The position numbers and the translations under genes were made by a program. From Candidatus Gottesmanbacteria bacterium (lineage in GTDB: Bacteria; Patescibacteriota; Microgenomatia; UBA10105; UBA927), in contig JAUXTO010000042.1 in the NCBI GenBank assembly GCA_030679255.1, positions 110,714 to 158,781 on the forward strand: 48,068 nucleotides of DNA, written 5' to 3'. Below, piece by piece: positions 4,365 to 44,036 of the stretch; the first letter of the stretch is position 1, and the number at the start of each line of letters is the position of its first letter. A model generated the notes under the pieces. It ran no database searches. It saw only the letters and a program-made list of their open reading frames with translations, and was not told where the DNA came from.

Positions 4365-4680
4365 CGCTCCCAGAGGGAATCCCTGCCCGCTAGCGCCTGA
4401 GCCTAGCTCTGGCAGGCGGGGAACCTTCATTTCCTCTTTACCTGCCCGCCGCGCCATTAATAAAAAAGTACGGCTGTATGCGCTCCCGGTGGGAATCGAA
4501 CCCACAACCTACTCTTTAGAAGAGAGTTGCTCTGTCCATTGAGCTACGGGAGCCTATCGGTAATTATACAACGGGTTAAGATTTTCTGCGCGCTTTGGCA
4601 GGCGGGGAAGAGAGGTGCCCCGCCTGCTACACCTCCAGCGTAGCTCTGGCGGGCAGGTCTATCCGTTGAGCTATGGGAGC
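4365..4680 (-). pseudogene. Interrupted outer tRNA-Arg(TCT) with three palindromic insertions, one containing an intact tRNA-Arg(TCT)
   Basis: Joining 4680-4658, 4618-4607, 4440-4421 and 4381-4365 gives GCTCCCA TAGCTCAACGGATAGAGCA CCTCT CTTCTAA AGAGG AAAT GAAGG TTCGATT CCCTC TGGGAGC G, a full cloverleaf. Confidence 0.85.
4481..4553 (-). tRNA. tRNA-Arg(TCT), nested
   Basis: Acceptor GCTCCCG/CGGGAGC, anticodon arm ACTCT-CTTCTAA-AGAGT. Confidence 0.95.
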
Positions 4681-4796: not shown

Positions 4797-5855
4797 ATGA
4801 AGCTCTTTTTACTGCTCTTTATATTTCTTCTTGCTCGACCGGCAATTGCCATCTATGATCCGCTTTCCGTCCCGAATAACAAATATGGCATCCATGTGGC
4901 TGATCCTAATGATATATCCAAAGTGAAAGATCTGGTCAACTCGACCCAGGGGGATTGGGGATACGTTACGTTGGTTATACCCGATAACGAACGCCGCGTC
5001 GATGTTTGGCAGCCGGTATTTGAACGCATGAAACGCGATCATCTGATCCCTATTGTGCGACTTGCGACCCATGTAGAAGGTGGCGTGTGGATAAAGCCAT
5101 CACTCACTGACGCTCATGTTTGGGTAAATTTTCTCAAAGAACTCCCGTGGCCAACAAAAAATCGCTATATCATTCTATTTAATGAACCGAACCATGCAAA
5201 AGAATGGGGTGGAACGGTCAGCCCTCATGAATACGCGGATGTTTTTATGGCCTATGCAAACGCCTTGAGACAGGCATCAGAAGACTTTTTTATCCTGCCT
5301 GCCGGTCTGGACGCGTCGGCGCCCAACGGCCGCGATACCATGGATGAGGAATTATTTTTGCGGTGGATGATTATCCAACAACCAGACATTCTCAACGTCA
5401 TGGATGGTTTAACCTCACACTCTTACCCCAACCCGGGATTTTCCGGATCCCCTTATGCGCAAGGTCGGGGAACACTGAGGACATATGAATGGGAACTCAA
5501 GGTTCTTGCCGATCTCGGGTCTACAAAGAGACTTCCGATATTCATTACTGAAACTGGCTGGGCACACAATGGGAATGCAGGAAAACAAACCCGATTGTCA
5601 CCGGACGATGTGAGTCAGTACGTGGAAATTGCTTCAAAGACTGTCTGGAATAACCCCCAGATTGCCGCGGTGACGCCGTTTCTTTTTAGCTATCAAGATG
5701 GCCTCTTTGCTATGTTTTCCTGGCTGCGTTTGACTACACGCGAGCCTTATTCCTTCTACCGATCATATCAACACATTGCTAAAATGAAAGGCGAACCGCT
5801 TACCTATCCAACGAACGACTATCTCGCTCTCATTGCTCACCCGCTTAACCTCTAA
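4797..5855 (+). CDS. Secreted clan GH-A-like glycoside hydrolase
   Basis: Signal peptide, FNEPN acid/base motif, SHSYP, IFITETGW nucleophile motif. Confidence 0.7.
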   Translation: MKLFLLLFIFLLARPAIAIYDPLSVPNNKYGIHVADPNDISKVKDLVNSTQGDWGYVTLVIPDNERRVDVWQPVFERMKRDHLIPIVRLATHVEGGVWIKPSLTDAHVWVNFLKELPWPTKNRYIILFNEPNHAKEWGGTVSPHEYADVFMAYANALRQASEDFFILPAGLDASAPNGRDTMDEELFLRWMIIQQPDILNVMDGLTSHSYPNPGFSGSPYAQGRGTLRTYEWELKVLADLGSTKRLPIFITETGWAHNGNAGKQTRLSPDDVSQYVEIASKTVWNNPQIAAVTPFLFSYQDGLFAMFSWLRLTTREPYSFYRSYQHIAKMKGEPLTYPTNDYLALIAHPLNL

Positions 5856-5882
5856 CACAAAATACGGTATACTACCGATATT

Positions 5883-5977
5883 GGTGATCCCCGCCTGCAA
5901 CGCCTGAGTTTTGCGATGGCGGGCAGGGTAGCATCGTCCATAGGACGACTAGCCTATGGCTAGCAATGGTAGTGCAC
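5883..5977 (+). pseudogene. Duplicated tRNA-His 5' segment interrupted by two palindromic elements
   Basis: GGTGATC[38 nt]GTAGCA[30 nt]CAATGGTAGTGCAC rejoins to the exact first 27 nt of tRNA-His (6292-6318). Confidence 0.85.
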
Positions 5978-5989
5978 TAATTTGAAAAA

Positions 5990-6253
5990 ATGTATTATCT
6001 TTATTTTTTAAAGAGTTTAAAAAATCAAGAAGTATATGTAGGAAGTACCTCTAAACACCCGGAGGTGCGACTACTTGAACACAATAACGGTTCCAATAAG
6101 TGGACTAGACAAAATAGACCGTTAAAGTTAGTCTATTTTGAAAAATATCACTGCAATAAAGATGCAAAGTCTAGAGAATTATTTTATAAATCAGGGGTAG
6201 GAAAAGTTGTAAAAAATATAATAATTGAAGCCTTTGAAAAGATTTCTAAATAA
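5990..6253 (+). CDS. Small GIY-YIG nuclease family protein
   Basis: YYLYFL…YVGST…RLLEHNNG…T…RPLKLVYFE…A..RE…KSG.G. Confidence 0.9.
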   Translation: MYYLYFLKSLKNQEVYVGSTSKHPEVRLLEHNNGSNKWTRQNRPLKLVYFEKYHCNKDAKSRELFYKSGVGKVVKNIIIEAFEKISK

Positions 6254-6257
6254 TATA

Positions 6258-6287
6258 TCGTCCATAGGACGACTAGCCTTTGGCTAG
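6258..6287. repeat. 30-nt double-hairpin repeat (second copy at 5934-5963)
   Basis: TCGTCCATAGGACGA-CTAGCCT(T/A)TGGCTAG occurs as a direct repeat on both sides of the GIY-YIG gene. Confidence 0.85.
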
Positions 6288-6291
6288 CATT

Positions 6292-6364
6292 GGTGATCGT
6301 AGCACAATGGTAGTGCACCAGCTTGTGGAGCTGGGCGTTGCGGGTTCGAATCCCGTCGGTCACC
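6292..6364 (+). tRNA. tRNA-His(GTG)
   Basis: G-1, acceptor GTGATCG/CGGTCAC, C73, anticodon arm CCAGC-TTGTGGA-GCTGG. Confidence 0.95.
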
Positions 6365-6400
6365 CATTCGACAGGCTCAGGGTTTACGACCCAAGACAGT

Positions 6401-6673
6401 ATGGAGTGGTACGTGTATATTCTTCTTTGCGATGAGAAAACTTTTTATGTGGGATTAACCTCTAATTTAAAAGAAAGACTGCATTCTCATAATTCTAAAT
6501 ATAATATCGGTACGAAAAAGTTTTCTCATATTGAGTTGGTCTATTCTGAAAAACATCCCGATCGGAAATCTGCTGAATATCGTGAAAAACAACTCAAACG
6601 CTGGACACACGCAAAGAAGAAAGCATTAGTTGAAGGAAATATCGAATTATTGAAACAACTGAGTAAATCCTGA
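6401..6673 (+). CDS. GIY-YIG nuclease family protein (UPF0213/YhbQ-like)
   Basis: WYVYILLC…FYVGLT.NL.ERL..HN…LVYSE…A..REKQLKRW…KK.AL; flanked by the inverted repeat CATTCGACAGGCTCAGG / CCTGAGCGTGTTGAATG. Confidence 0.9.
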   Translation: MEWYVYILLCDEKTFYVGLTSNLKERLHSHNSKYNIGTKKFSHIELVYSEKHPDRKSAEYREKQLKRWTHAKKKALVEGNIELLKQLSKS

Positions 6674-6716
6674 GCGTGTTGAATGATCGACGGTTAATGG
6701 TGAGCAAAGTCGAACC

Positions 6717-6734
6717 ATCCCGTCGGTCACCCCA
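6717..6734 (+). repeat. tRNA-His 3'-end copy 1
   Basis: ATCCCGTCGGTCACCCCA. Confidence 0.9.
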
Positions 6735-6854
6735 AGAGCTAAGTCGTTAGAGAATTCCAACTTTAAAGTAATATATTTGATTCAAAGCTATATTAAGATC
6801 CTAGCGTGGTTAGCTATTTCATATCAGGTAAGTATGATTTAAAATCAACTTATC

Positions 6855-7760
6855 ATGGTTATTAGCTCGGTATCCGAAGAAAATATATTTTACGAATTGC
6901 TTGATAATACTAAAGATAATATCAAATACGCTTTTGAAAATAATTGGCCATATATTCTACAAGCCACGCGAAATGGATATATGACATATGGCGATACAGA
7001 AACAAAAGTGTATTATACTAAACGATTTCCTAACGTAGAAAGATCGCCTATTGTGATAGTAAATGCACTAGGGAGATACCCTAGAGAATGCATAAGTAAA
7101 CTTGCACTGAATAATCATAAAAATAACATTAATACAATTGTAAAAAACGTTCCTTCTAATAATTTGCAGTGGTGGCTGGAAAATAATTTTACCGAAACAA
7201 CGACACCCTGGAGTCATTATTCGATAAAGGATGATAATACTTTCCCACAATATATTGTTCTTAACGAGACAATACTGCTCAAAGGTTTTAAAGAAGATGT
7301 AAAGTATCAAATCAATCGTTTTCAAAAAAGACCAATCTCTACAATTCAATATTCAGAAAATTATAACAAAGAAGCAATGCGTCTACTTGATGATTTCTCG
7401 ATTTATTCTCAAAATAAAGGAAATGATTATGCTAATGAAGTTAAAAATGGACATTTATTTTTTTTTGATAATTTAATTCAAAAAAGAATCAGGTTTGCAC
7501 ATATTGAAAACGATAGATTAATAGGTTTTTCATTTTTAACTCCTGTGAATAATATAATTTTTTATAATGCTGTTATATGCCAATACGAAAGAAACATTAT
7601 GAAATATTTGGTGTACCAAAGTTTAAAGTTACTAGCAGAGAGAAATATATACAAGTATTTTTGTATGCAGGGTTCAGAAAATGAGGGACAAGACTATTTA
7701 AAAAAACGACTTGGTGCATCAATAGTAATTCAGAAAACACACTTGACTTATTCCCCGTAG
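6855..7760 (+). CDS. AT-rich hypothetical protein, possibly GNAT-fold (DUF2156/FemAB-like)
   Basis: 301-aa ORF. RLIGFSFL and the C-terminal YFCMQGSENEGQDYLKKRLG resemble aminoacyl-transferase GNAT C-termini (weak). Confidence 0.55.
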   Translation: MVISSVSEENIFYELLDNTKDNIKYAFENNWPYILQATRNGYMTYGDTETKVYYTKRFPNVERSPIVIVNALGRYPRECISKLALNNHKNNINTIVKNVPSNNLQWWLENNFTETTTPWSHYSIKDDNTFPQYIVLNETILLKGFKEDVKYQINRFQKRPISTIQYSENYNKEAMRLLDDFSIYSQNKGNDYANEVKNGHLFFFDNLIQKRIRFAHIENDRLIGFSFLTPVNNIIFYNAVICQYERNIMKYLVYQSLKLLAERNIYKYFCMQGSENEGQDYLKKRLGASIVIQKTHLTYSP

Positions 7761-7995
7761 TCATCAATGAGATTATTTAACTACTTTAGGTGCCAGCAGG
7801 TGTAGTCTCTAAAACATTTAGCGATTTATACACAACACTCAACAATACAGCCTCTCTAGAATTCTCCATGAAATACCTTGCTAGGTTGGCATATAGTCCC
7901 GTTGGGGACCCACAGTTCGACAAGCTCACTGTTCAAGTGAGTTTGGCGGAGTGTGAGCGATGGGATGAGAAGTTTATACTGAGCTTGCCGAAGTA

Positions 7996-8014
7996 AATCC
8001 CGTCGGTCACCCCA
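7996..8014 (+). repeat. tRNA-His 3'-end copy 2
   Basis: AATCCCGTCGGTCACCCCA, preceded by the REP-like GAGAAGTTTATACTGAGCTTGCCGAAGTA. Confidence 0.9.
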
Positions 8015-8084
8015 ACCTTTTTAGCTTCAAGTAACTTAATCAAACTATTCTAATCCAAAACTGGACTTGAACTACTTGTCAAAA

Positions 8085-8624
8085 TTAAACAAGTTCTTCC
8101 TTCCGCAACTCCATGATATAAGTGGGATCAGGCTCATTATGAATTTGTACTGTTTTTACATATTTAAACCCTGCTTTTTTGTATGCCTTAATTGCTCTGG
8201 TGTTATTTGGTTCCGGGCCAATGATGCAGGTATTTATACTATTATTTGCAAAAACAATTTTTTTAAGAAACTTTTTTATCATCTTATTTCCTAATTCTCG
8301 ACCCATAAATGAAGTGTCCCCTATAAATAAATCTATACTTGCAGTGTTGTCATCATACCCTACATGGTTTCCAAACTCGGGCCAATCATTCACTTTATAT
8401 GTTTGCATATAGGCAACTGGTTTTTTACCATATAAAACTATATAACAATCCGTTGGTTTTTCTCCTTTTATTTTCGGAGCATAACGTTTAGTAATTGCTT
8501 CCAGTGTATTTTCTTTGTCTTTGTCATACCATTCATGCACATGAGGTTCATTAAGCCATTTATGCATGAGGTCTAAACCGGCTAGTTGGAGTCTTTCAAA
8601 AGAAATAAATTTCGGATTAAGCAT
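8085..8624 (-). CDS. GNAT acetyltransferase, AAC(6')/Acetyltransf_8-like
   Basis: WLNEPHV.EWY, AYMQTY, IDLFIGD….GRELG, PEPNN.RAIKAYKKAGF. Confidence 0.85.
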   Translation of the reverse strand: MLNPKFISFERLQLAGLDLMHKWLNEPHVHEWYDKDKENTLEAITKRYAPKIKGEKPTDCYIVLYGKKPVAYMQTYKVNDWPEFGNHVGYDDNTASIDLFIGDTSFMGRELGNKMIKKFLKKIVFANNSINTCIIGPEPNNTRAIKAYKKAGFKYVKTVQIHNEPDPTYIMELRKEELV

Positions 8625-8795
8625 GTGTATATTGTATCATTTGGGGACTATAAAATCGCAAATGCGGATCTTAAAAATACCAACTTTCGTTGGTTTCAAT
8701 GAACTATTTATAGTAAGTCCTTACATCGTTCGATAGTCTACCCACAGAACGATGGGGTGAGAAGTTTACCCTGAGCGAGTCATCGAGTCGAATGG

Positions 8796-8815
8796 GAATC
8801 CCGTCGGTCACCCCA
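8796..8815 (+). repeat. tRNA-His 3'-end copy 3
   Basis: GAATCCCGTCGGTCACCCCA, preceded by the REP-like GAGAAGTTTACCCTGAGCGAGTCATCGAGTCGAATGGG. Confidence 0.9.
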
Positions 8816-8836
8816 AAACAGTGTATAATAATCTTC

Positions 8837-21413: not shown

Positions 21414-21429
21414 GCAATTTTTCCGTTTG

Positions 21430-21677
21430 AGCCCAGAGAAGGAATTGTCATGCGAAGCGTGATTTGGCTTCGCCAGAAACCCACGACCGAGTTCTTACCG
21501 CGCTCGCCGCGCCTACCTTGAGCCCAGAGAGGGAATTGAACCCTCGACCTCTTTCTTACCAAGAAAGCGTTCTGCCGCTGAACTATCTGGGCGCTATGGC
21601 GGGCGAGCCAAGAACTCGCTCCCCGCCTGCAACGCTTAGCCTAGCATTGCGGGCAGGTACCACTGAGCCATTCGGGC
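21430..21677 (-). pseudogene. Interrupted outer tRNA-Thr(GGT) with three insertions, one containing an intact tRNA-Thr(GGT)
   Basis: Pieces 21677-21658, 21621-21608, 21497-21478 and 21447-21430 join to GCCCGAA TGGCTCAGTGGTAGAGCG AGTTC TTGGTAA GAACT CGGTC GTGGG TTCAATT CCTTC TCTGGGC T. Confidence 0.8.
21521..21592 (-). tRNA. tRNA-Thr(GGT), nested
   Basis: Acceptor GCCCAGA/TCTGGGC, anticodon arm CTTTC-TTGGTAA-GAAAG. Confidence 0.95.
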
Positions 21678-21729
21678 GCAATAAAGACAATTGTATCATG
21701 GATAAATAATTGTATGAAGTACAAAAAAC

Positions 21730-22998: not shown

Positions 22999-23070
22999 AG
23001 CCGACGAGAGGATTTGAACCTCCAACCTTCGCTTTACAAAAGCGCTGCTCAACCATTGAGCTACGTCGGC
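22999..23070 (-). tRNA. tRNA-Thr(TGT), innermost and intact
   Basis: Acceptor GCCGACG/CGTCGGC, anticodon arm GCGCT-TTTGTAA-AGCGA. Confidence 0.93.
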
Positions 23071-23084
23071 GTAAATGTACGGGA

Positions 23085-23129
23085 CTAACTCACAGTATAA
23101 CTCACTTCGTTCGCTAACTGTGAGTTGAG
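23085..23129. repeat. 45-nt hairpin element (second copy at 23301-23345)
   Basis: CTAACTCACAGTA…CTCACTTCGTTCGC..ACTGTGAGTTGAG, two near-identical copies at tRNA anticodon split points. Confidence 0.85.
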
Positions 23130-23476
23130 CAAAACAGTTGCTCGGACTTTATCCGCCTCTGGCGGAACTGAGCTACGCCAGCTTAGAAGTACGGGATCCC
23201 GCACCTCTAAGCCAAATTGTACAACAATTTGGCAAGATGGTGCTGGGACAAAACCGTCGCTCTGCCGTTGAGCTAGGGAGGCGAGCATAAATGTACGGGA
23301 CTAACTCACAGTATTACTCACTTCGTTCGCAAACTGTGAGTTGAGCAAAACAGTTGCCCCGCCCGCTACGCCTGAGCGTTAGCTCTGGCGGGCAGGTCTA
23401 CCACTGAGCTACGCCAGCAACTCGTATTGAAATTGTACCAAAGACTACGAAGATCAACAACATTTGAGGTTAAAGA

Positions 23477-27283: not shown

Positions 27284-29614
27284 TTATTCGTTGACTTTCG
27301 ATAAAAATTCTTTATCACCTGCATCTACTTTTGCGAGATAGTCCTTCAGTACCGTACGCGCAAGATCGGATTTTCGTATCTCGGTATAAAATACCCAAAG
27401 GGCATAGTAGCCATCACGATAGTTCGGTTTGAGGGTAATGGTAGATTTGAGAAGATCTATAGCTTTTGTATTATCTCCTTTACGACCGTACAGAATAGAG
27501 AGATTGTAGGTAATCTTCGGATCGTTGGGAGATAATCTCTGTGCTTGTTCGAGAGCGGCAATCGAAGCGTCGTTAAAAGCCGGATCGAAAGAGGAAAATG
27601 TGTAATAGATCTTCGTGCGTGTTTTCCAAAAATTGACGTTTTTGGGACTCGTGGTAATTGCCCGGTCGCTTTCGGCAAGACTCATGCGCACGAATTGGGC
27701 GGCTCGAGTGGCATCCTTCTCCTCAATTGCTGTCGTCGCGAGTCCCGCGTATGCCATCCCTAGCTCATCGGCAAACAATGGTTCAAGCGGATTATAGGTG
27801 AGCGCTTGGGATAATTTCGCGACCGCCACATCATATTGCCCGGCCCGGCTCATGCGATACCCGCTCGCATAAAGTGTATCTGCGTACCAACCCGCCGATA
27901 GCAACGCAAGCAAGCCAAACAATACAAGCAAGACCAGATAGACCGGAATGAGCGATAGAGCATTCGTCTGTTTTGAAGAAGATAAGAATGATACATGATA
28001 AAAAGTATTCTTGTTTCTTGTTTCTTGGTTTTTGATCGTTAAACTCATGATGATCGCCGGAAAAAGAAATAGAAATACTTGCACAATGACGACAGAGAAT
28101 CCGAAGAAGTTTGTGACGAGGATAGAGAGCCAACCGGCAAAGAGGGCTGCACGTAAGCACCAAGCATCAAATTCCAAATTCCAAACAAAATTTAGGGGAT
28201 TTGTTTGTGATTTGGTGCTTGGAATTTGGGATTTGATGAACCAAAATACAAAAGAACTAAGAAGTAATAGGTAGCTTCCGAGTCCAAAAATCCCCGTTGT
28301 AGCCAAGTAGTTGAGGTATTCGTTGTGGGCTTTGTTGTAGAGGAAATCCCATTCGCTCGTCATGTTATGCCCCTGGGGTCGGTATTGGTAAAACGCAAAT
28401 GCAAAGGTCTCCGTGCCGGTGCCGATGAGATAGGCTTTCGTCGAACTTCTCCATGCGTTGATTGCCCCCTGCCAGACGTATTTTCGTATCGTTCCGGATT
28501 CCGTGCCTCCGGTTTCCAAAAGGGGAGCGGTAAATGCTGAGGCGGAAGCCTCGGTGGTTGTAGGTGGTAGGTTGTAGGTTGTAGATTGTGGAAGGCGGGA
28601 TTTCCAGCCGTCAAGCGTAAGCCAACGATCAACCGAGGCGATGGACGTGCCGCTAAAGAATACGATGAGAAAAAAGGATACATGTACAAGGATAAAGGAT
28701 AGATACCCGGGTTTCAAAGCCTGGCTTTGATTTGATTTGGAGCGTCGTAATAATCCGATAAAAAATAACCCCCAAAACACGATATCTGCGACAGCAAACG
28801 CAAAGAGCCCTGAGCGGGAGCGGGTGAAGAGGAGGACGGCAAAAAACAAAATGACCAATGACCAATGACCAATGACCAATAAAATATTCAAGAAATAATT
28901 TTTGTTTGGAAATTGAAAATTGAAAATTGTCCCGCGAAGCGGGATCCCGCTTCGCGTGAGAAATTGTAGCCCGAGCGCCATAGCTAGCGGCGTGAGGGCG
29001 ACCAGGTATGCTGCCAGCCAATTGGGCTGTCCCAACGTCGAGAACACACGATTCTGTACATCCTGTACCCAGAGGTGGCGGTCAATGCCCAACCGTTCCG
29101 CGACCCCGTAGAGGGCGACGACAACACCAGTGGCGAGGGAGATTTTAAGTATATAGGTTAGGGTATTTAGGGGTAAGGGACCATCCGATGATTTATCCGA
29201 GATTTTATTCCTAAATACTAAATACTTTTCCCTAAATACTTCCCCTATGTTGCTTATCAATGCGTAGTACAGCAGCACATAGCTGATGATCGATAACATC
29301 CCGCCATTAAACCGGCTGTAGTAGCCAAACCATGAGACGTGAGGATCGATAGAGAAGAGAGAAGAGAGAAGCTGAGAAAAGAGGAAGAGGAGAATCGGGA
29401 TATCCAACGGTGTTTTGGCAATCCGAAGCTCTCTTTGATGAACGCTCTTGACGAGCCACGCACCGGTTATGACGACCGTGAGGGCGTAGACTGCCATCAT
29501 TTTATTAAATTCAAACAGTTCGTAGTTCCAGGGGGTCAGAAGGATAGGCACCAGGCCAAAAAGGAGATAGAATCCCCACCGGATCACGCGGTCACACCAT
29601 AGGCTCACATTCAT
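27284..29614 (-). CDS. O-antigen ligase family membrane protein with C-terminal TPRs
   Basis: Many TM helices, STLGQPN, TRSRSG, IGTG.ETF, AHNEYL, TPR-like C-terminus. Confidence 0.85.
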   Translation of the reverse strand: MNVSLWCDRVIRWGFYLLFGLVPILLTPWNYELFEFNKMMAVYALTVVITGAWLVKSVHQRELRIAKTPLDIPILLFLFSQLLSSLFSIDPHVSWFGYYSRFNGGMLSIISYVLLYYALISNIGEVFREKYLVFRNKISDKSSDGPLPLNTLTYILKISLATGVVVALYGVAERLGIDRHLWVQDVQNRVFSTLGQPNWLAAYLVALTPLAMALGLQFLTRSGIPLRGTIFNFQFPNKNYFLNILLVIGHWSLVILFFAVLLFTRSRSGLFAFAVADIVFWGLFFIGLLRRSKSNQSQALKPGYLSFILVHVSFFLIVFFSGTSIASVDRWLTLDGWKSRLPQSTTYNLPPTTTEASASAFTAPLLETGGTESGTIRKYVWQGAINAWRSSTKAYLIGTGTETFAFAFYQYRPQGHNMTSEWDFLYNKAHNEYLNYLATTGIFGLGSYLLLLSSFVFWFIKSQIPSTKSQTNPLNFVWNLEFDAWCLRAALFAGWLSILVTNFFGFSVVIVQVFLFLFPAIIMSLTIKNQETRNKNTFYHVSFLSSSKQTNALSLIPVYLVLLVLFGLLALLSAGWYADTLYASGYRMSRAGQYDVAVAKLSQALTYNPLEPLFADELGMAYAGLATTAIEEKDATRAAQFVRMSLAESDRAITTSPKNVNFWKTRTKIYYTFSSFDPAFNDASIAALEQAQRLSPNDPKITYNLSILYGRKGDNTKAIDLLKSTITLKPNYRDGYYALWVFYTEIRKSDLARTVLKDYLAKVDAGDKEFLSKVNE

Positions 29615-41927: not shown

Positions 41928-44036
41928 ATGATTCTCATCATCGTCGAATCACCAACGAAAGCCCGCACCCTTACCCGTTTTCTTAGCGGCAAAGGCGACT
42001 ATCGCGTGGAAGCCACCATGGGCCACATACGGGATTTGCCCAAAGCTACACTTGGGGTCGACTTGGATCATGATTTTGCGCCAAGTTACATCATTCCCAA
42101 AGACCGTCAGAAAAGAGTCGGAGAACTCAAAGCACTCGCCAAAAAAGCCGATTCTGTCATCCTTGCAACTGATCCGGACCGCGAAGGGGAAGCAATCGCT
42201 TGGCATGCGGCGAGCTTACTCGCGGATAGTCGTCAGTCGTCAGCCCGCCTGCAGGCGCCTGGAGCGCCAGCGACTGGCGGGCAGGTCGTCAGTCGTCAGA
42301 AAAAAAATAAAAAGTCTGAAGGCAGAAAGCTGACCGCTGATAGCTTCCGTCGTATCATCTTCCACGAAATTACGGAGTCGGCAATTCATGAAGCAATCTC
42401 ACAACCGAGGGAAATAGATCTCAAACTCGTGGATGCCCAACAAGCCCGCCGGGTCCTTGACCGCCTCGTCGGATATAAACTCTCTCCGCTTCTCTGGCAA
42501 AAACTTTCCCGCCGGTGGCTTTCTGCCGGCCGCGTCCAATCCGTGGCGGTACGACTGATCGTAGAACGGGAAAGAGAAATAGAAAAGTTTGGGAAAGAAG
42601 AATTTTGGACAATCGAGGGCAAATTTCTATTATCCAATTCTCAAATTAACGCGCAATTAGTAAACAAAAACGGAGAGAAATACGAAAAATCACTAACGTA
42701 TACGCTTTTTGATGGAACGTATACGACCACCAGTTCGTCAATAGACAATAAACAAAAAGCAGAAAGCGTTATAGCGGATCTTCGATCTCCCTACACAGTG
42801 TCGGCCGTCGATACGAAAGAAATCCGCCGGAGCCCGCCGCCGCCGTATACCACAAGTACCCTTCAGCAGGATGCGGGGCGACGATTAGGATTTTCAGCCA
42901 AACGCACGATGCAACTTGCGCAAAAATTGTATGAAGAAGGCATTATTACCTACCACCGGACGGACAGTGTCAATTTAGCGGAAAAATTTATCGGTGAAGC
43001 ACGAGCGTACATCGAACTCACGTATGGCGCCCGGTACTCACCGGAGAAGCCACGCCGCTACCAAACCAAGTCCAAACTTGCCCAGGAAGCACATGAAGCA
43101 ATCAGGCCGACGGACGTAGGAATGACCAATGACCAATTTCCAAATCCCAATGCGGAACTCAACCGAGATCACCATCGTCTCTATGGTCTCATCTGGAAAC
43201 GGGCCTTAGCGTGCCAGGTGAAAGAGGCAGTGTTTGATTCGACCACGATCAAAATCGCAAGTGGCAATGGCTACCAGTTCGAGCTACAGGGATCAGTCAT
43301 CAAATTTGACGGCTATCTCATAGTGCTCGGTCGCGAGACCGATGGTGAGGCTCAGCTACCTCGCGTATCGGTAGGAGAAATCGTCACATTAGACGCTACG
43401 AGTCCTTCCGAACATTTCACTATGCCTCCGCCACGATATACGGAAGCCACCCTCGTTAAAGCTCTCGAAGAAGCCGGGATAGGCCGTCCGAGCACGTATG
43501 CTCCAATTATTTCTACGATACAGGAACGCATGTATATCGCCAAAGAAGAAAAAAAATTGGTCCCTACTGATCTCGGATTTTCCGTCACGGACTTTCTCGT
43601 GCAATATTTTCCTACCATACTCAAGCTTCCATTTACCGCCCATATGGAAGATGAATTCGATCAGATTGCAGCGGGCTCCAAGGCATGGCAACCGGTTATC
43701 CGCGATTTTTATACACCATTTGCCGTTGAGCTTGCTCAAGCCTACGAATCTGCAGAAAAAGTGAAAATGCCCGTAGAGACGCTCGATGAAAAATGTCCTG
43801 ATTGCGGGTTTGCTCTCGTCATCCGTACTGGCCGGTATGGCAAGTTCATCGCATGCAGCACGTTTCCTGCGTGCAAATACAGCCGTCAACTCATCGAAAA
43901 GATCGATAAGCTATGCCCCCGCTGCGGGGGAGATATCATTGTCAAAAAAAGCAGAAAACGAGGAAAAACGTTTTATGGATGCGGCAATTACCCGACCTGT
44001 ACGTTTGCCGCATGGAAGAAGGAAGATATAAAATAG
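41928..44036 (+). CDS. topA: DNA topoisomerase I
   Basis: IVESPTKA, ATDPDREGE, SAGRVQS, ITYHRTDS, AHEAIRPT, GIGRPSTY, C-terminal zinc ribbons. Confidence 0.97.
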   Translation: MILIIVESPTKARTLTRFLSGKGDYRVEATMGHIRDLPKATLGVDLDHDFAPSYIIPKDRQKRVGELKALAKKADSVILATDPDREGEAIAWHAASLLADSRQSSARLQAPGAPATGGQVVSRQKKNKKSEGRKLTADSFRRIIFHEITESAIHEAISQPREIDLKLVDAQQARRVLDRLVGYKLSPLLWQKLSRRWLSAGRVQSVAVRLIVEREREIEKFGKEEFWTIEGKFLLSNSQINAQLVNKNGEKYEKSLTYTLFDGTYTTTSSSIDNKQKAESVIADLRSPYTVSAVDTKEIRRSPPPPYTTSTLQQDAGRRLGFSAKRTMQLAQKLYEEGIITYHRTDSVNLAEKFIGEARAYIELTYGARYSPEKPRRYQTKSKLAQEAHEAIRPTDVGMTNDQFPNPNAELNRDHHRLYGLIWKRALACQVKEAVFDSTTIKIASGNGYQFELQGSVIKFDGYLIVLGRETDGEAQLPRVSVGEIVTLDATSPSEHFTMPPPRYTEATLVKALEEAGIGRPSTYAPIISTIQERMYIAKEEKKLVPTDLGFSVTDFLVQYFPTILKLPFTAHMEDEFDQIAAGSKAWQPVIRDFYTPFAVELAQAYESAEKVKMPVETLDEKCPDCGFALVIRTGRYGKFIACSTFPACKYSRQLIEKIDKLCPRCGGDIIVKKSRKRGKTFYGCGNYPTCTFAAWKKEDIK

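Follow-up and report, generated by a model that had tools for sequence, protein, structure and literature searches.

A minimal GIY-YIG nuclease gene at a duplicated, hairpin-split tRNA-His 5′ end in Candidatus Gottesmanbacteria: a probable selfish element of tRNA genes

We analysed a stretch of 48,068 nucleotides (the window) from contig JAUXTO010000042.1 of Candidatus Gottesmanbacteria, in which a small gene for a GIY-YIG nuclease domain lies between an interrupted and an intact copy of the 5′ end of the tRNA-His gene. The source genome, denoted G000, is a metagenome-assembled genome (MAG) of 1.45 Mb in 44 contigs with an estimated contamination of 2.8%. The tRNA-His(GTG) gene was placed at 6293-6365 by ARAGORN and by the Rfam tRNA model (64.9 bits) with G-1 encoded at 6292, the intact gene with G-1 occupying 6292..6365 on the + strand, as do all features of the locus given in this paragraph. 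The 30-mer ATTGGTGATCGTAGCACAATGGTAGTGCAC is found intact once, at 6289-6318, with no other copy at up to 3 mismatches and no match in 100 shuffles; from the ARAGORN and Rfam placement, it therefore consists of the 4 nt before the mature 5′ end followed by nt 1-26. Further upstream the same tRNA-His positions, -4 to +26, are present as a displaced copy in three pieces, which show 30/30 identity once both inserts are removed. The first piece (ATTGGTGATC, positions -4 to +6, 5880..5889) is identical to 6289-6298 and is followed by a 38-nt GC-rich palindromic hairpin of the CCCGCCYGC...GCRGGCRGG family (5890..5927). The second piece (GTAGCA, nt 7-12, 5928..5933, identical to 6299-6304) is separated from the third by a 30-nt double hairpin (copy 1, 5934..5963) that sits in the D-loop part of the displaced copy (GTAGCA^CAATGG) and is made up of two adjacent hairpins, each having a 6-bp stem and a 3-nt loop. 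The third piece (CAATGGTAGTGCAC, nt 13-26, 5964..5977) is identical to 6305-6318, after which the similarity to the tRNA stops. The 87-aa stand-alone GIY-YIG open reading frame (ORF), called GIY1 here, follows at 5990..6253 and is the only ORF in 5880-6318 that has a family match. A second copy of the double hairpin (6258..6287, 1 mismatch to copy 1) ends 4 nt before G-1 of the intact tRNA; it is inserted before CATTGG, a look-alike of the CAATGG site of copy 1, and the repeat formed by the two copies extends to 38 nt at 95% identity. Upstream of all these, a consensus scan gives a promoter-like site (TTAACC-17 nt-TATACT, 5845..5873, 9/12 consensus match) that is probably the original tRNA-His promoter, and a TATACT or TATAAT box stands at equal distance from the intact tRNA in three genomes that have nothing inserted at this site (G001, G002 and G009). 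The first-pass annotation, made from the letters of the window, had described the 30-mer as intact at 6289-6318 and split by a 38-nt and a 30-nt insert at 5880-5977, with the 87-aa ORF between the copies and with the 5′ and not the 3′ end of the tRNA duplicated at the unit, and our reading of the sequence agrees on each of these points. It had also reported the 30-nt element to be repeated after the ORF, which is so, except that the position it implied is off by one.

GIY1 matches the Pfam GIY-YIG family (PF01541) over residues 1-69 with an E-value of 1.6e-15 and 57.6 bits, the cut-off being 22.6. Residues Y5, Y16, G18, R27, H31 and E51 are invariant in the alignment of its own subfamily, and Y5, Y16, G18, R27, R62 and E63 are invariant across 10 members of the wider family; going by the I-TevI and UvrC literature, we take these Tyr, Arg, His and Glu residues to form the catalytic core. 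GIY1 has few close relatives, which share with it an invariant EHNNGSNKW motif. When the family profile was compared with the PDB, the best matches were 1zg2 (3.4e-17) and 1ywl (2.2e-16), the UPF0213 proteins BH0048 and EF2693, followed more weakly by Slx1 (about 1e-5), UvrC (2.5e-4) and I-TevI (8e-3). The AlphaFold model of GIY1 is one compact domain with a pLDDT (predicted local distance difference test) score of 95.2, and a fold search with this model returned HIGLE, UPF0213 or Slx1 (Slx1-Slx4) proteins for all of the top 10 positions with I-TevI at the 14th; the query-normalised TM (template modelling) scores are 0.51-0.65 and the Foldseek E-values are 2e-3 to 3e-2, all of them above 1e-3. 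An NCBIfam scan of GIY1 and of the second GIY-YIG protein of the locus (GIY2, see below) gave only a sub-threshold match to 'group I intron endonuclease', and in both the Pfam match and the AlphaFold model the 87 aa of GIY1 are all catalytic domain with no DNA-binding module found. By profile and predicted structure, GIY1 is thus assigned to a minimal Slx1-like/UPF0213 branch of the GIY-YIG superfamily, and it may work like a homing endonuclease even though it is not a typical one. Slx1 enzymes cleave branched and structured DNA, according to the available part of one study (PMC1564403) and to the titles of PDB entries. The presence of a bare putative nuclease of the structure-specific type beside conserved hairpins and the arms of a tRNA gene is suggestive.

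The tRNA-His 5′ site is variable among relatives of G000. It is empty in G001 and G002, which are of the same genus as G000, and in G009, the promoter being directly before tRNA-His in all three. In the closest relative, G003, also of this genus, only 10 nt from the start of the copy remain, and a C-terminal GIY-YIG remnant of about 98 nt separates them from the tRNA. A contig from X2, a metagenome run of another study, spans both flanks of the locus: it covers 5838-5933, resumes at 6289 after 13 letters of other sequence and runs on to 6736 with 3 differences over 448 nt, so that the 38-nt hairpin is kept as a scar while both double hairpins and GIY1 are missing. Besides G000 the site is occupied in G004, G008, G021 and G045, where the resident GIY-YIG genes belong to other lineages, making at least three lineages at one site among these genomes. 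Related genomes therefore carry both occupied and precisely empty alleles, which is one of the features expected of a homing gene. A simple tandem duplication of tRNA-His together with its GIY-YIG gene was also considered and rejected, since GIY1 and GIY2 are only 34% identical, belong to separate clades, and each has relatives at the same position elsewhere. One may still ask if the arrangement arose through misassembly, or is a resemblance by chance, in a MAG of 44 contigs with 2.8% estimated contamination. In G000, tRNA-Trp, tRNA-Tyr and tRNA-His are indeed present a second time on other contigs (C23, C25 and C40), and these copies may be true duplicates or contamination. Against this, both inserts, like the 30-mer, have no match in 100 shuffles, dozens of assemblies made independently show the same layout, and the X2 contig covers both flanks; we consider such an artefact extremely improbable.

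The link between small GIY-YIG genes and tRNA genes is not confined to tRNA-His. G000 has 8 such genes, of which 4 lie within 100 nt of a tRNA gene (as does 0.8% of the genome) and 7 within 2 kb (7.4% of the genome). On extending the analysis to 61 genomes of the same order, which is the basis of all order-wide counts below, Slx1-like GIY-YIG genes were found in 58, with up to 14 copies each and with stop codons in many of the matches. When each genome is represented by its best locus, a tRNA on the same strand lies within 150 nt in 21 of 30. A survey of five genomes, in which 30 of the 34 GIY-YIG copies were examined, found a tRNA no more than 150 nt away for 20 of the 30, in every case co-oriented with the gene: in 14 cases the match is followed by the start of the tRNA at 0-16 nt, and in the remaining 6 the gene lies 7-66 nt after the tRNA. 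Among the 5′-side loci of the order, an upstream copy of the 5′ part of the tRNA is significant (p ≤ 0.02, 100 shuffles per locus) in 16 of 23. A wider set was made of 79 species having relatives (54-69% identity) of the tRNA-His-linked protein of G004. It covers many lineages of the candidate phyla radiation (CPR), and its members labelled as other phyla are mostly without an adjacent tRNA; a tRNA is directly downstream of the GIY-YIG gene in 45 species, and 32 of the 42 testable loci have the upstream copy, which starts at -4 to +1 and reaches nt 11-27. The layout of promoter, hairpin-split copy of the tRNA 5′ part, GIY-YIG ORF and intact tRNA thus recurs at many tRNA identities and in many CPR lineages. 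Also, clades of the GIY-YIG tree track the tRNA identity and the side of insertion, the 5′-side label requiring 6 changes on the tree compared to 19.6 when shuffled, a value reached in none of 500 shuffles. GIY1 itself is on a long branch of its own.

It may be noted that in many relatives the GIY-YIG stop codon is immediately adjacent to the tRNA or shares its first base, and that at G000:C38:157385-157705 the GIY-YIG ORF runs into tRNA-Glu(ctc) and has its stop codon in the D-loop. For annotation, such loci yield tRNA pseudo-fragments and ORFs that abut or enter tRNA genes.

We then consider the hairpins. The GIY-YIG type that is usual on the 5′ side of tRNAs is called the common subfamily here, and GIY1 belongs to a separate one. 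In the 23 loci that were displayed and judged by eye for the hairpin-split layout, a GC-rich palindrome follows the upstream tRNA copy in every case and interrupts the copy at nt 7-21 in most; its arms are CCCGCCYGC / GCRGGCGGG in most loci, and in most the tRNA sequence resumes after the hairpin up to about nt 23-29 with the start codon 5-15 nt further on. A strict GC-rich hairpin pattern, scored within 130 nt upstream of the ORF, gave 31 of 44 common-subfamily loci compared to 0 of 42 control windows; a detector for any perfect 8-bp stem was too strict for use (13 of 44 loci). The 38-nt insert at tRNA-His carries the signature of the common subfamily, and a related hairpin is present at the same point of the tRNA-His copy (after nt 6-7) in G004 and G021. 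In G000 as a whole, this family has 22 copies by a looser pattern and 30 by an IUPAC pattern. The 30-nt double hairpin behaves in a different manner. It is present in 6 of 8 distinct GIY1-like loci (≥51% identity) as against 1 of 44 common-subfamily loci, and the 6 all have two perfect 6-bp stems and 3-nt loops in 30 nt, located in the D-loop part of the adjacent tRNA copy; two further GIY1-like loci have imperfect double hairpins. These elements were seen at tRNA-Pro, tRNA-Val and tRNA-Lys, and several, including copy 1 at tRNA-His, are directly before CAATGG. Their stems vary between copies with the pairing kept. In G000, 36 matches to the double-hairpin family were found at up to 1 stem mismatch, about 27 of which are genuine by eye, and the same scan of one G000 contig gave 5 matches compared to 1, 1 and 1 in three shuffles. 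One more copy interrupts a 5′ fragment of tRNA-Met located 24 nt ahead of tRNA-Met itself. Each nuclease subfamily thus has its own hairpin type. The exact 30-nt sequence has 2 copies in G000, both at this locus, and none in 40 relatives; the idea that it is private to the locus and unrelated to the nuclease was dropped, as it is a member of a structurally conserved double-hairpin family with variable stems.

As a separate observation, an arrangement behind tRNA-Thr(ggt) at 21427-21519 (- strand) is the mirror image of the 5′ architecture: here an imperfect double hairpin interrupts the T-loop part of a duplicated tRNA 3′ end (GGGTT^...^CAATTCC).

Most hairpins are not at the GIY-YIG loci, which raises the question of what moves them. 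Repetitive extragenic palindromic (REP) sequences with their Y1 transposases (REP-associated tyrosine transposases, RAYT) and IS200/IS605 elements have short GC-rich palindromes in tens of dispersed copies with no obvious target duplication, and in typical REP-RAYT pairs the palindromes are close to the Y1 gene. One may therefore propose that the hairpins are REP-like, moved by Y1 enzymes of the RAYT or IS200 type and surviving in dispensable tRNA fragments, and that the GIY-YIG genes are passengers or host factors for tRNA or RNA processing or for repair. There are indeed 9 Y1_Tnp matches in G000 and some in 49 of the 61 genomes, and the hairpins are dispersed with most copies far from GIY-YIG genes. 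However, no hairpin was found within 700 nt of any of the 9 Y1_Tnp genes of G000, the nearest being at 702 nt and the rest at ≥2.3 kb or with none on the contig, several of these contigs being short. Across the 61 genomes, the number of hairpins correlates with the number of GIY-YIG genes (rho 0.51), and the partial correlation is 0.39 given Y1_Tnp; with Y1_Tnp number, rho is 0.36 and falls to 0.07 given GIY-YIG. The complete genome G063 has 8 hairpins and 4 GIY-YIG genes with no Y1_Tnp match. Hairpin type also co-varies with the GIY-YIG subfamily. As to a host function, a published phylogenomic analysis (PMC1564403, in the part available) describes a prokaryotic Slx1-like domain joined to a tRNA methyltransferase of the TrmH type and proposes that it is involved in RNA metabolism, and Arabidopsis HIGLE, of the same fold, is the best structural match to GIY1. 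Yet 0-14 copies in a genome of about 1 Mb, many of them with stops or truncated, and at polymorphic sites, are unlike a housekeeping gene. We consider this explanation improbable. The narrower proposal that the 38-nt insert is an unrelated REP moved by a RAYT is likewise weakened by the layout of the hairpins, the partial correlations, the distance from Y1_Tnp genes and the control counts. The first-pass annotation had named the GIY-YIG protein as the best candidate in the window for the enzyme that mobilises the palindromes; the support for this is correlative (subfamily co-variation, the rho of 0.51 and G063), and the nuclease activity is a predicted one.

Some of the dispersed hairpins resemble remains of the 5′ units. 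In G000, 5 of the 22 hairpins abut a tRNA 5′ fragment, and 4 of these are without a GIY-YIG gene ('solo scars'), which are also found in G063 and G021. Solo scars of the 38-nt family in the window are at 4619-4674, 21622-21679 and 23358-23421, all on the - strand and upstream of tRNA-Arg(tct), tRNA-Thr(ggt) and tRNA-Thr(tgt) respectively. At 21658-21679 the sequence of the fragment deviates from that of the tRNA next to it, as would be expected if a former copy of the tRNA had been exchanged for another.

On the 3′ side of tRNA-His a different kind of structure is found. The last ~20 nt of the tRNA are repeated downstream at 6716, 7996 and 8797 (17-20-nt repeats), a feature that the first-pass annotation had passed over. 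The first cassette (6366..6735, + strand) has the GIY2 gene (ORF 6401-6673, 90 aa) and ends in the repeat 6716-6735. Two more cassettes in 6736..8816, bounded by the repeats 7996-8015 and 8797-8816, have a 301-aa ORF without a family match (6855-7760, + strand) and a GNAT acetyltransferase gene (8085-8624, - strand). As these repeats bound the cassettes, tRNA-His has small inserts on either side that are delimited by partial copies of the tRNA. Each cassette has a shared motif of about 50 nt followed by the tRNA 3′-end repeat, and the array is integron-like. Between G000 and G001, nucleotide identity is 97.0% for the GIY2 cassette and 95.5% for the GNAT cassette, compared to 64-69% for the flanking host genes; GIY2 is first in the G000 array and last in that of G001, where the GNAT cassette is also at another place. 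In G009 an ortholog of GIY2 is directly after tRNA-His. At the 3′ repeats, other junctions occur in metagenome contigs, among them 6365 to 8816 and 6728 to 8740. The 3′ cassettes have thus been exchanged recently. It may be added that the best NCBIfam matches of the GNAT protein are AAC(6′) aminoglycoside acetyltransferases (E 1e-25), at 90 bits which is far below the cut-offs of 250-450 bits.

Integrases that target tRNA genes produce a duplication of the 3′ end. An alternative is then that a site-specific recombinase from another locus mobilises the cassettes, in the manner of integrons or satellites, with the partial tRNAs as attachment sites and the GIY-YIG gene as a frequent cargo. The three 3′ cassettes bounded by tRNA-His 3′-end repeats, two of which have no nuclease, the unlike cassette order of G000 and G001, and the alternative junctions all fit with this. 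But no recombinase gene is present in or beside the arrays, the neighbours being a GH-like protein, GIY2, the 301-aa ORF and GNAT. In addition, the 5′ units duplicate the 5′ end with the hairpin at a variable position (nt 7-21), neither of which suits a fixed crossover core, and the family-wide linkage to tRNAs of many identities is hard to square with a random cargo. We regard this alternative as quite unlikely.

Taking these results together, our preferred reading, to which we would give a probability of about 70%, is that small selfish elements, with a minimal Slx1-like GIY-YIG nuclease gene as their core, have settled on the 5′ side of tRNA-His in two nested invasions. The minimal mobile unit of nuclease, hairpins and restored tRNA that the first-pass annotation had proposed is in line with this, being supported by the recurrent layout, the polymorphic site and the presence there of at least three GIY-YIG lineages. 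Since the two inserts are signatures of two element lineages, the invasion was probably nested and in two steps. The first invader would have been of the common tRNA-His-specific lineage, and the 38-nt hairpin after nt 6 would be its trace, comparable to what is seen in G004, G021 and the X2 scar. The second, a GIY1-type element, would then have brought the 30-nt double hairpin into the D-loop part, and the extra double-hairpin copy may have landed at the look-alike site CATTGG. As to the mechanism, the putative nuclease may cut or nick structured DNA at tRNA genes, whereupon the element would be copied in by repair, as in homing, or be inserted with a target duplication. Since the 5′ part of the tRNA is either carried by the element or regenerated by it, the tRNA would be made whole again. 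A duplication derived from the target at each new tRNA points to staggered cutting or target-templated repair rather than to simple copying from a donor at a different tRNA. The hairpin in the displaced copy would break its homology to the intact tRNA, and possibly the nuclease site as well, and could in this way shield the element from deletion and self-cleavage. The ORF may be expressed within the tRNA-His leader transcript from the tRNA promoter, with RNase P freeing the tRNA. The dispersed hairpins would be non-autonomous relatives moved in trans by the same nucleases. Both the nuclease activity and the mode of insertion are predicted in this scheme.

A number of points weigh against this reading. 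In the five-genome survey, 10 of the 30 GIY-YIG copies are not near a tRNA, and on the 3′ side the duplication is significant in just 3 of 17 copies. Clades that follow tRNA identity are also to be expected from old insertions that are vertically inherited. Most G000 hairpins are far from GIY-YIG genes and tRNAs, and many are flanked by heptad repeats. The number of GIY-YIG genes correlates with that of Y1_Tnp as well (rho 0.61), so that mobile-element load may explain part of the correlation with the hairpins, and the p-values of these correlations overstate the case because the genomes are related. By its Pfam match and model, GIY1 appears to be a catalytic domain only, as opposed to the known GIY-YIG homing endonucleases, which carry a DNA-binding module. 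Also, an occupied locus keeps an intact tRNA and so possibly an intact target, which is atypical for homing. The order of the invasions and the origin of the second double hairpin are reconstructions, and what is said above of cleavage, expression and transfer of the element is what we infer from the arrangement of the sequences.

A bolder proposal is that these elements are a new class of mobile DNA, in which a minimal Slx1-like nuclease lacking a DNA-binding domain would find its targets by DNA structure (the D-arm or T-arm hairpins of tRNA genes and its own hairpin), insert with regeneration of the tRNA, and move the dispersed hairpins of 30-50 nt as non-autonomous partners. We put this forward as tentative and rather doubtful. 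If it is true, GIY-YIG 'hairpin transposases' would be responsible for much of the palindrome load and for the partial tRNA copies in CPR genomes, with the 3′ arrays as their cargo system.

As to known systems, tRNA genes are the classic landing sites of integrase-bearing islands. Tyrosine-integrase islands, and satellites having only cargo, insert in a tRNA gene, restore it with a part borne by the element and leave partial tRNA repeats. The 3′-side array looks alike and bears tRNA 3′ repeats, whereas the 5′ unit has no tyrosine or serine recombinase, is only 0.35-0.4 kb long, duplicates the 5′ part and has a conserved hairpin in the displaced copy. The hairpins resemble those of REP/RAYT and IS200/IS605 in being short, GC-rich, dispersed in tens and sometimes nested, and differ in that they are not clustered at Y1 genes, track the GIY-YIG subfamilies, and in several cases are inside tRNA fragments. 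In fold and size GIY1 is the same as the Slx1/UPF0213 proteins (BH0048 and EF2693; PDB 1zg2, 1ywl and 6seh). The bacterial proteins of this group have no known cellular role, and the available part of PMC1564403 does not mention tRNA linkage, hairpins or mobility. There is also a likeness to free-standing GIY-YIG homing endonuclease genes, above all to SegB of phage T4, which lies in the tRNA gene cluster, is inherited with flanking tRNA sequence and varies in presence among relatives (PMC2330249, in the part available). Enzymes of the SegB type are larger, have DNA-binding modules, and are intergenic without tRNA duplication or signature hairpins; in the unit described here, the protein is of the Slx1 branch and consists of an 87-aa catalytic domain, and the 5′ part of the tRNA is duplicated with the copy split by a hairpin. 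GIY-YIG ORFs are also present in structured-RNA genes of CPR bacteria as non-intron insertions in rRNA genes (PMC11270868). These are in rRNA genes, are called sparse and probably not homing, and the term 'tRNA gene' is absent from that text. A tRNA-linked stand-alone GIY-YIG gene with a duplicated tRNA 5′ part or signature hairpins was not found in the main texts of the open-access PMC and bioRxiv literature. The recurrent layout points to a family of tRNA-targeting selfish nuclease elements absent from the literature searched, and there is a real chance that they are a new hairpin-guided class of mobile elements.

With about 260 bp, a gene that encodes no more than a nuclease domain seems to take the role of an island integrase from the 5′ side and with a conserved hairpin signature, and the layout spans tRNAs of most identities across a huge and poorly known bacterial radiation. 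If the nuclease does spread itself and its hairpins, this would give a function to the widespread UPF0213/Slx1-like proteins of bacteria, would account for the partial tRNA copies and palindromes of CPR genomes, and would provide a very small structure-guided DNA-insertion system that is amenable to in vitro work.

Some further observations on the dispersed hairpins may be recorded. Many members of both hairpin families are found in the middle of short tandem heptad repeats such as (GACTTTT)n, (TCGTCAG)n and (TCATCAG)n, at 42244-42285 and 28930-28959 in the window and at many sites on other G000 contigs, and these stretches look like composite repeat units. Hairpins nested in hairpins are present at G000:C23:106398 and C40:57943. 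On G063:C1 there are five near-identical hairpins of 36-37 nt (three of them identical) far from tRNAs, some in apparent coding regions, where 36 nt would preserve the frame. Finally, a 73-nt repeat with an internal long hairpin (23069-23141 and 23285-23357, 96% identical) precedes tRNA-Thr(tgt) and a degenerate tRNA-like fragment, which suggests repeated rounds of insertion at this tRNA.

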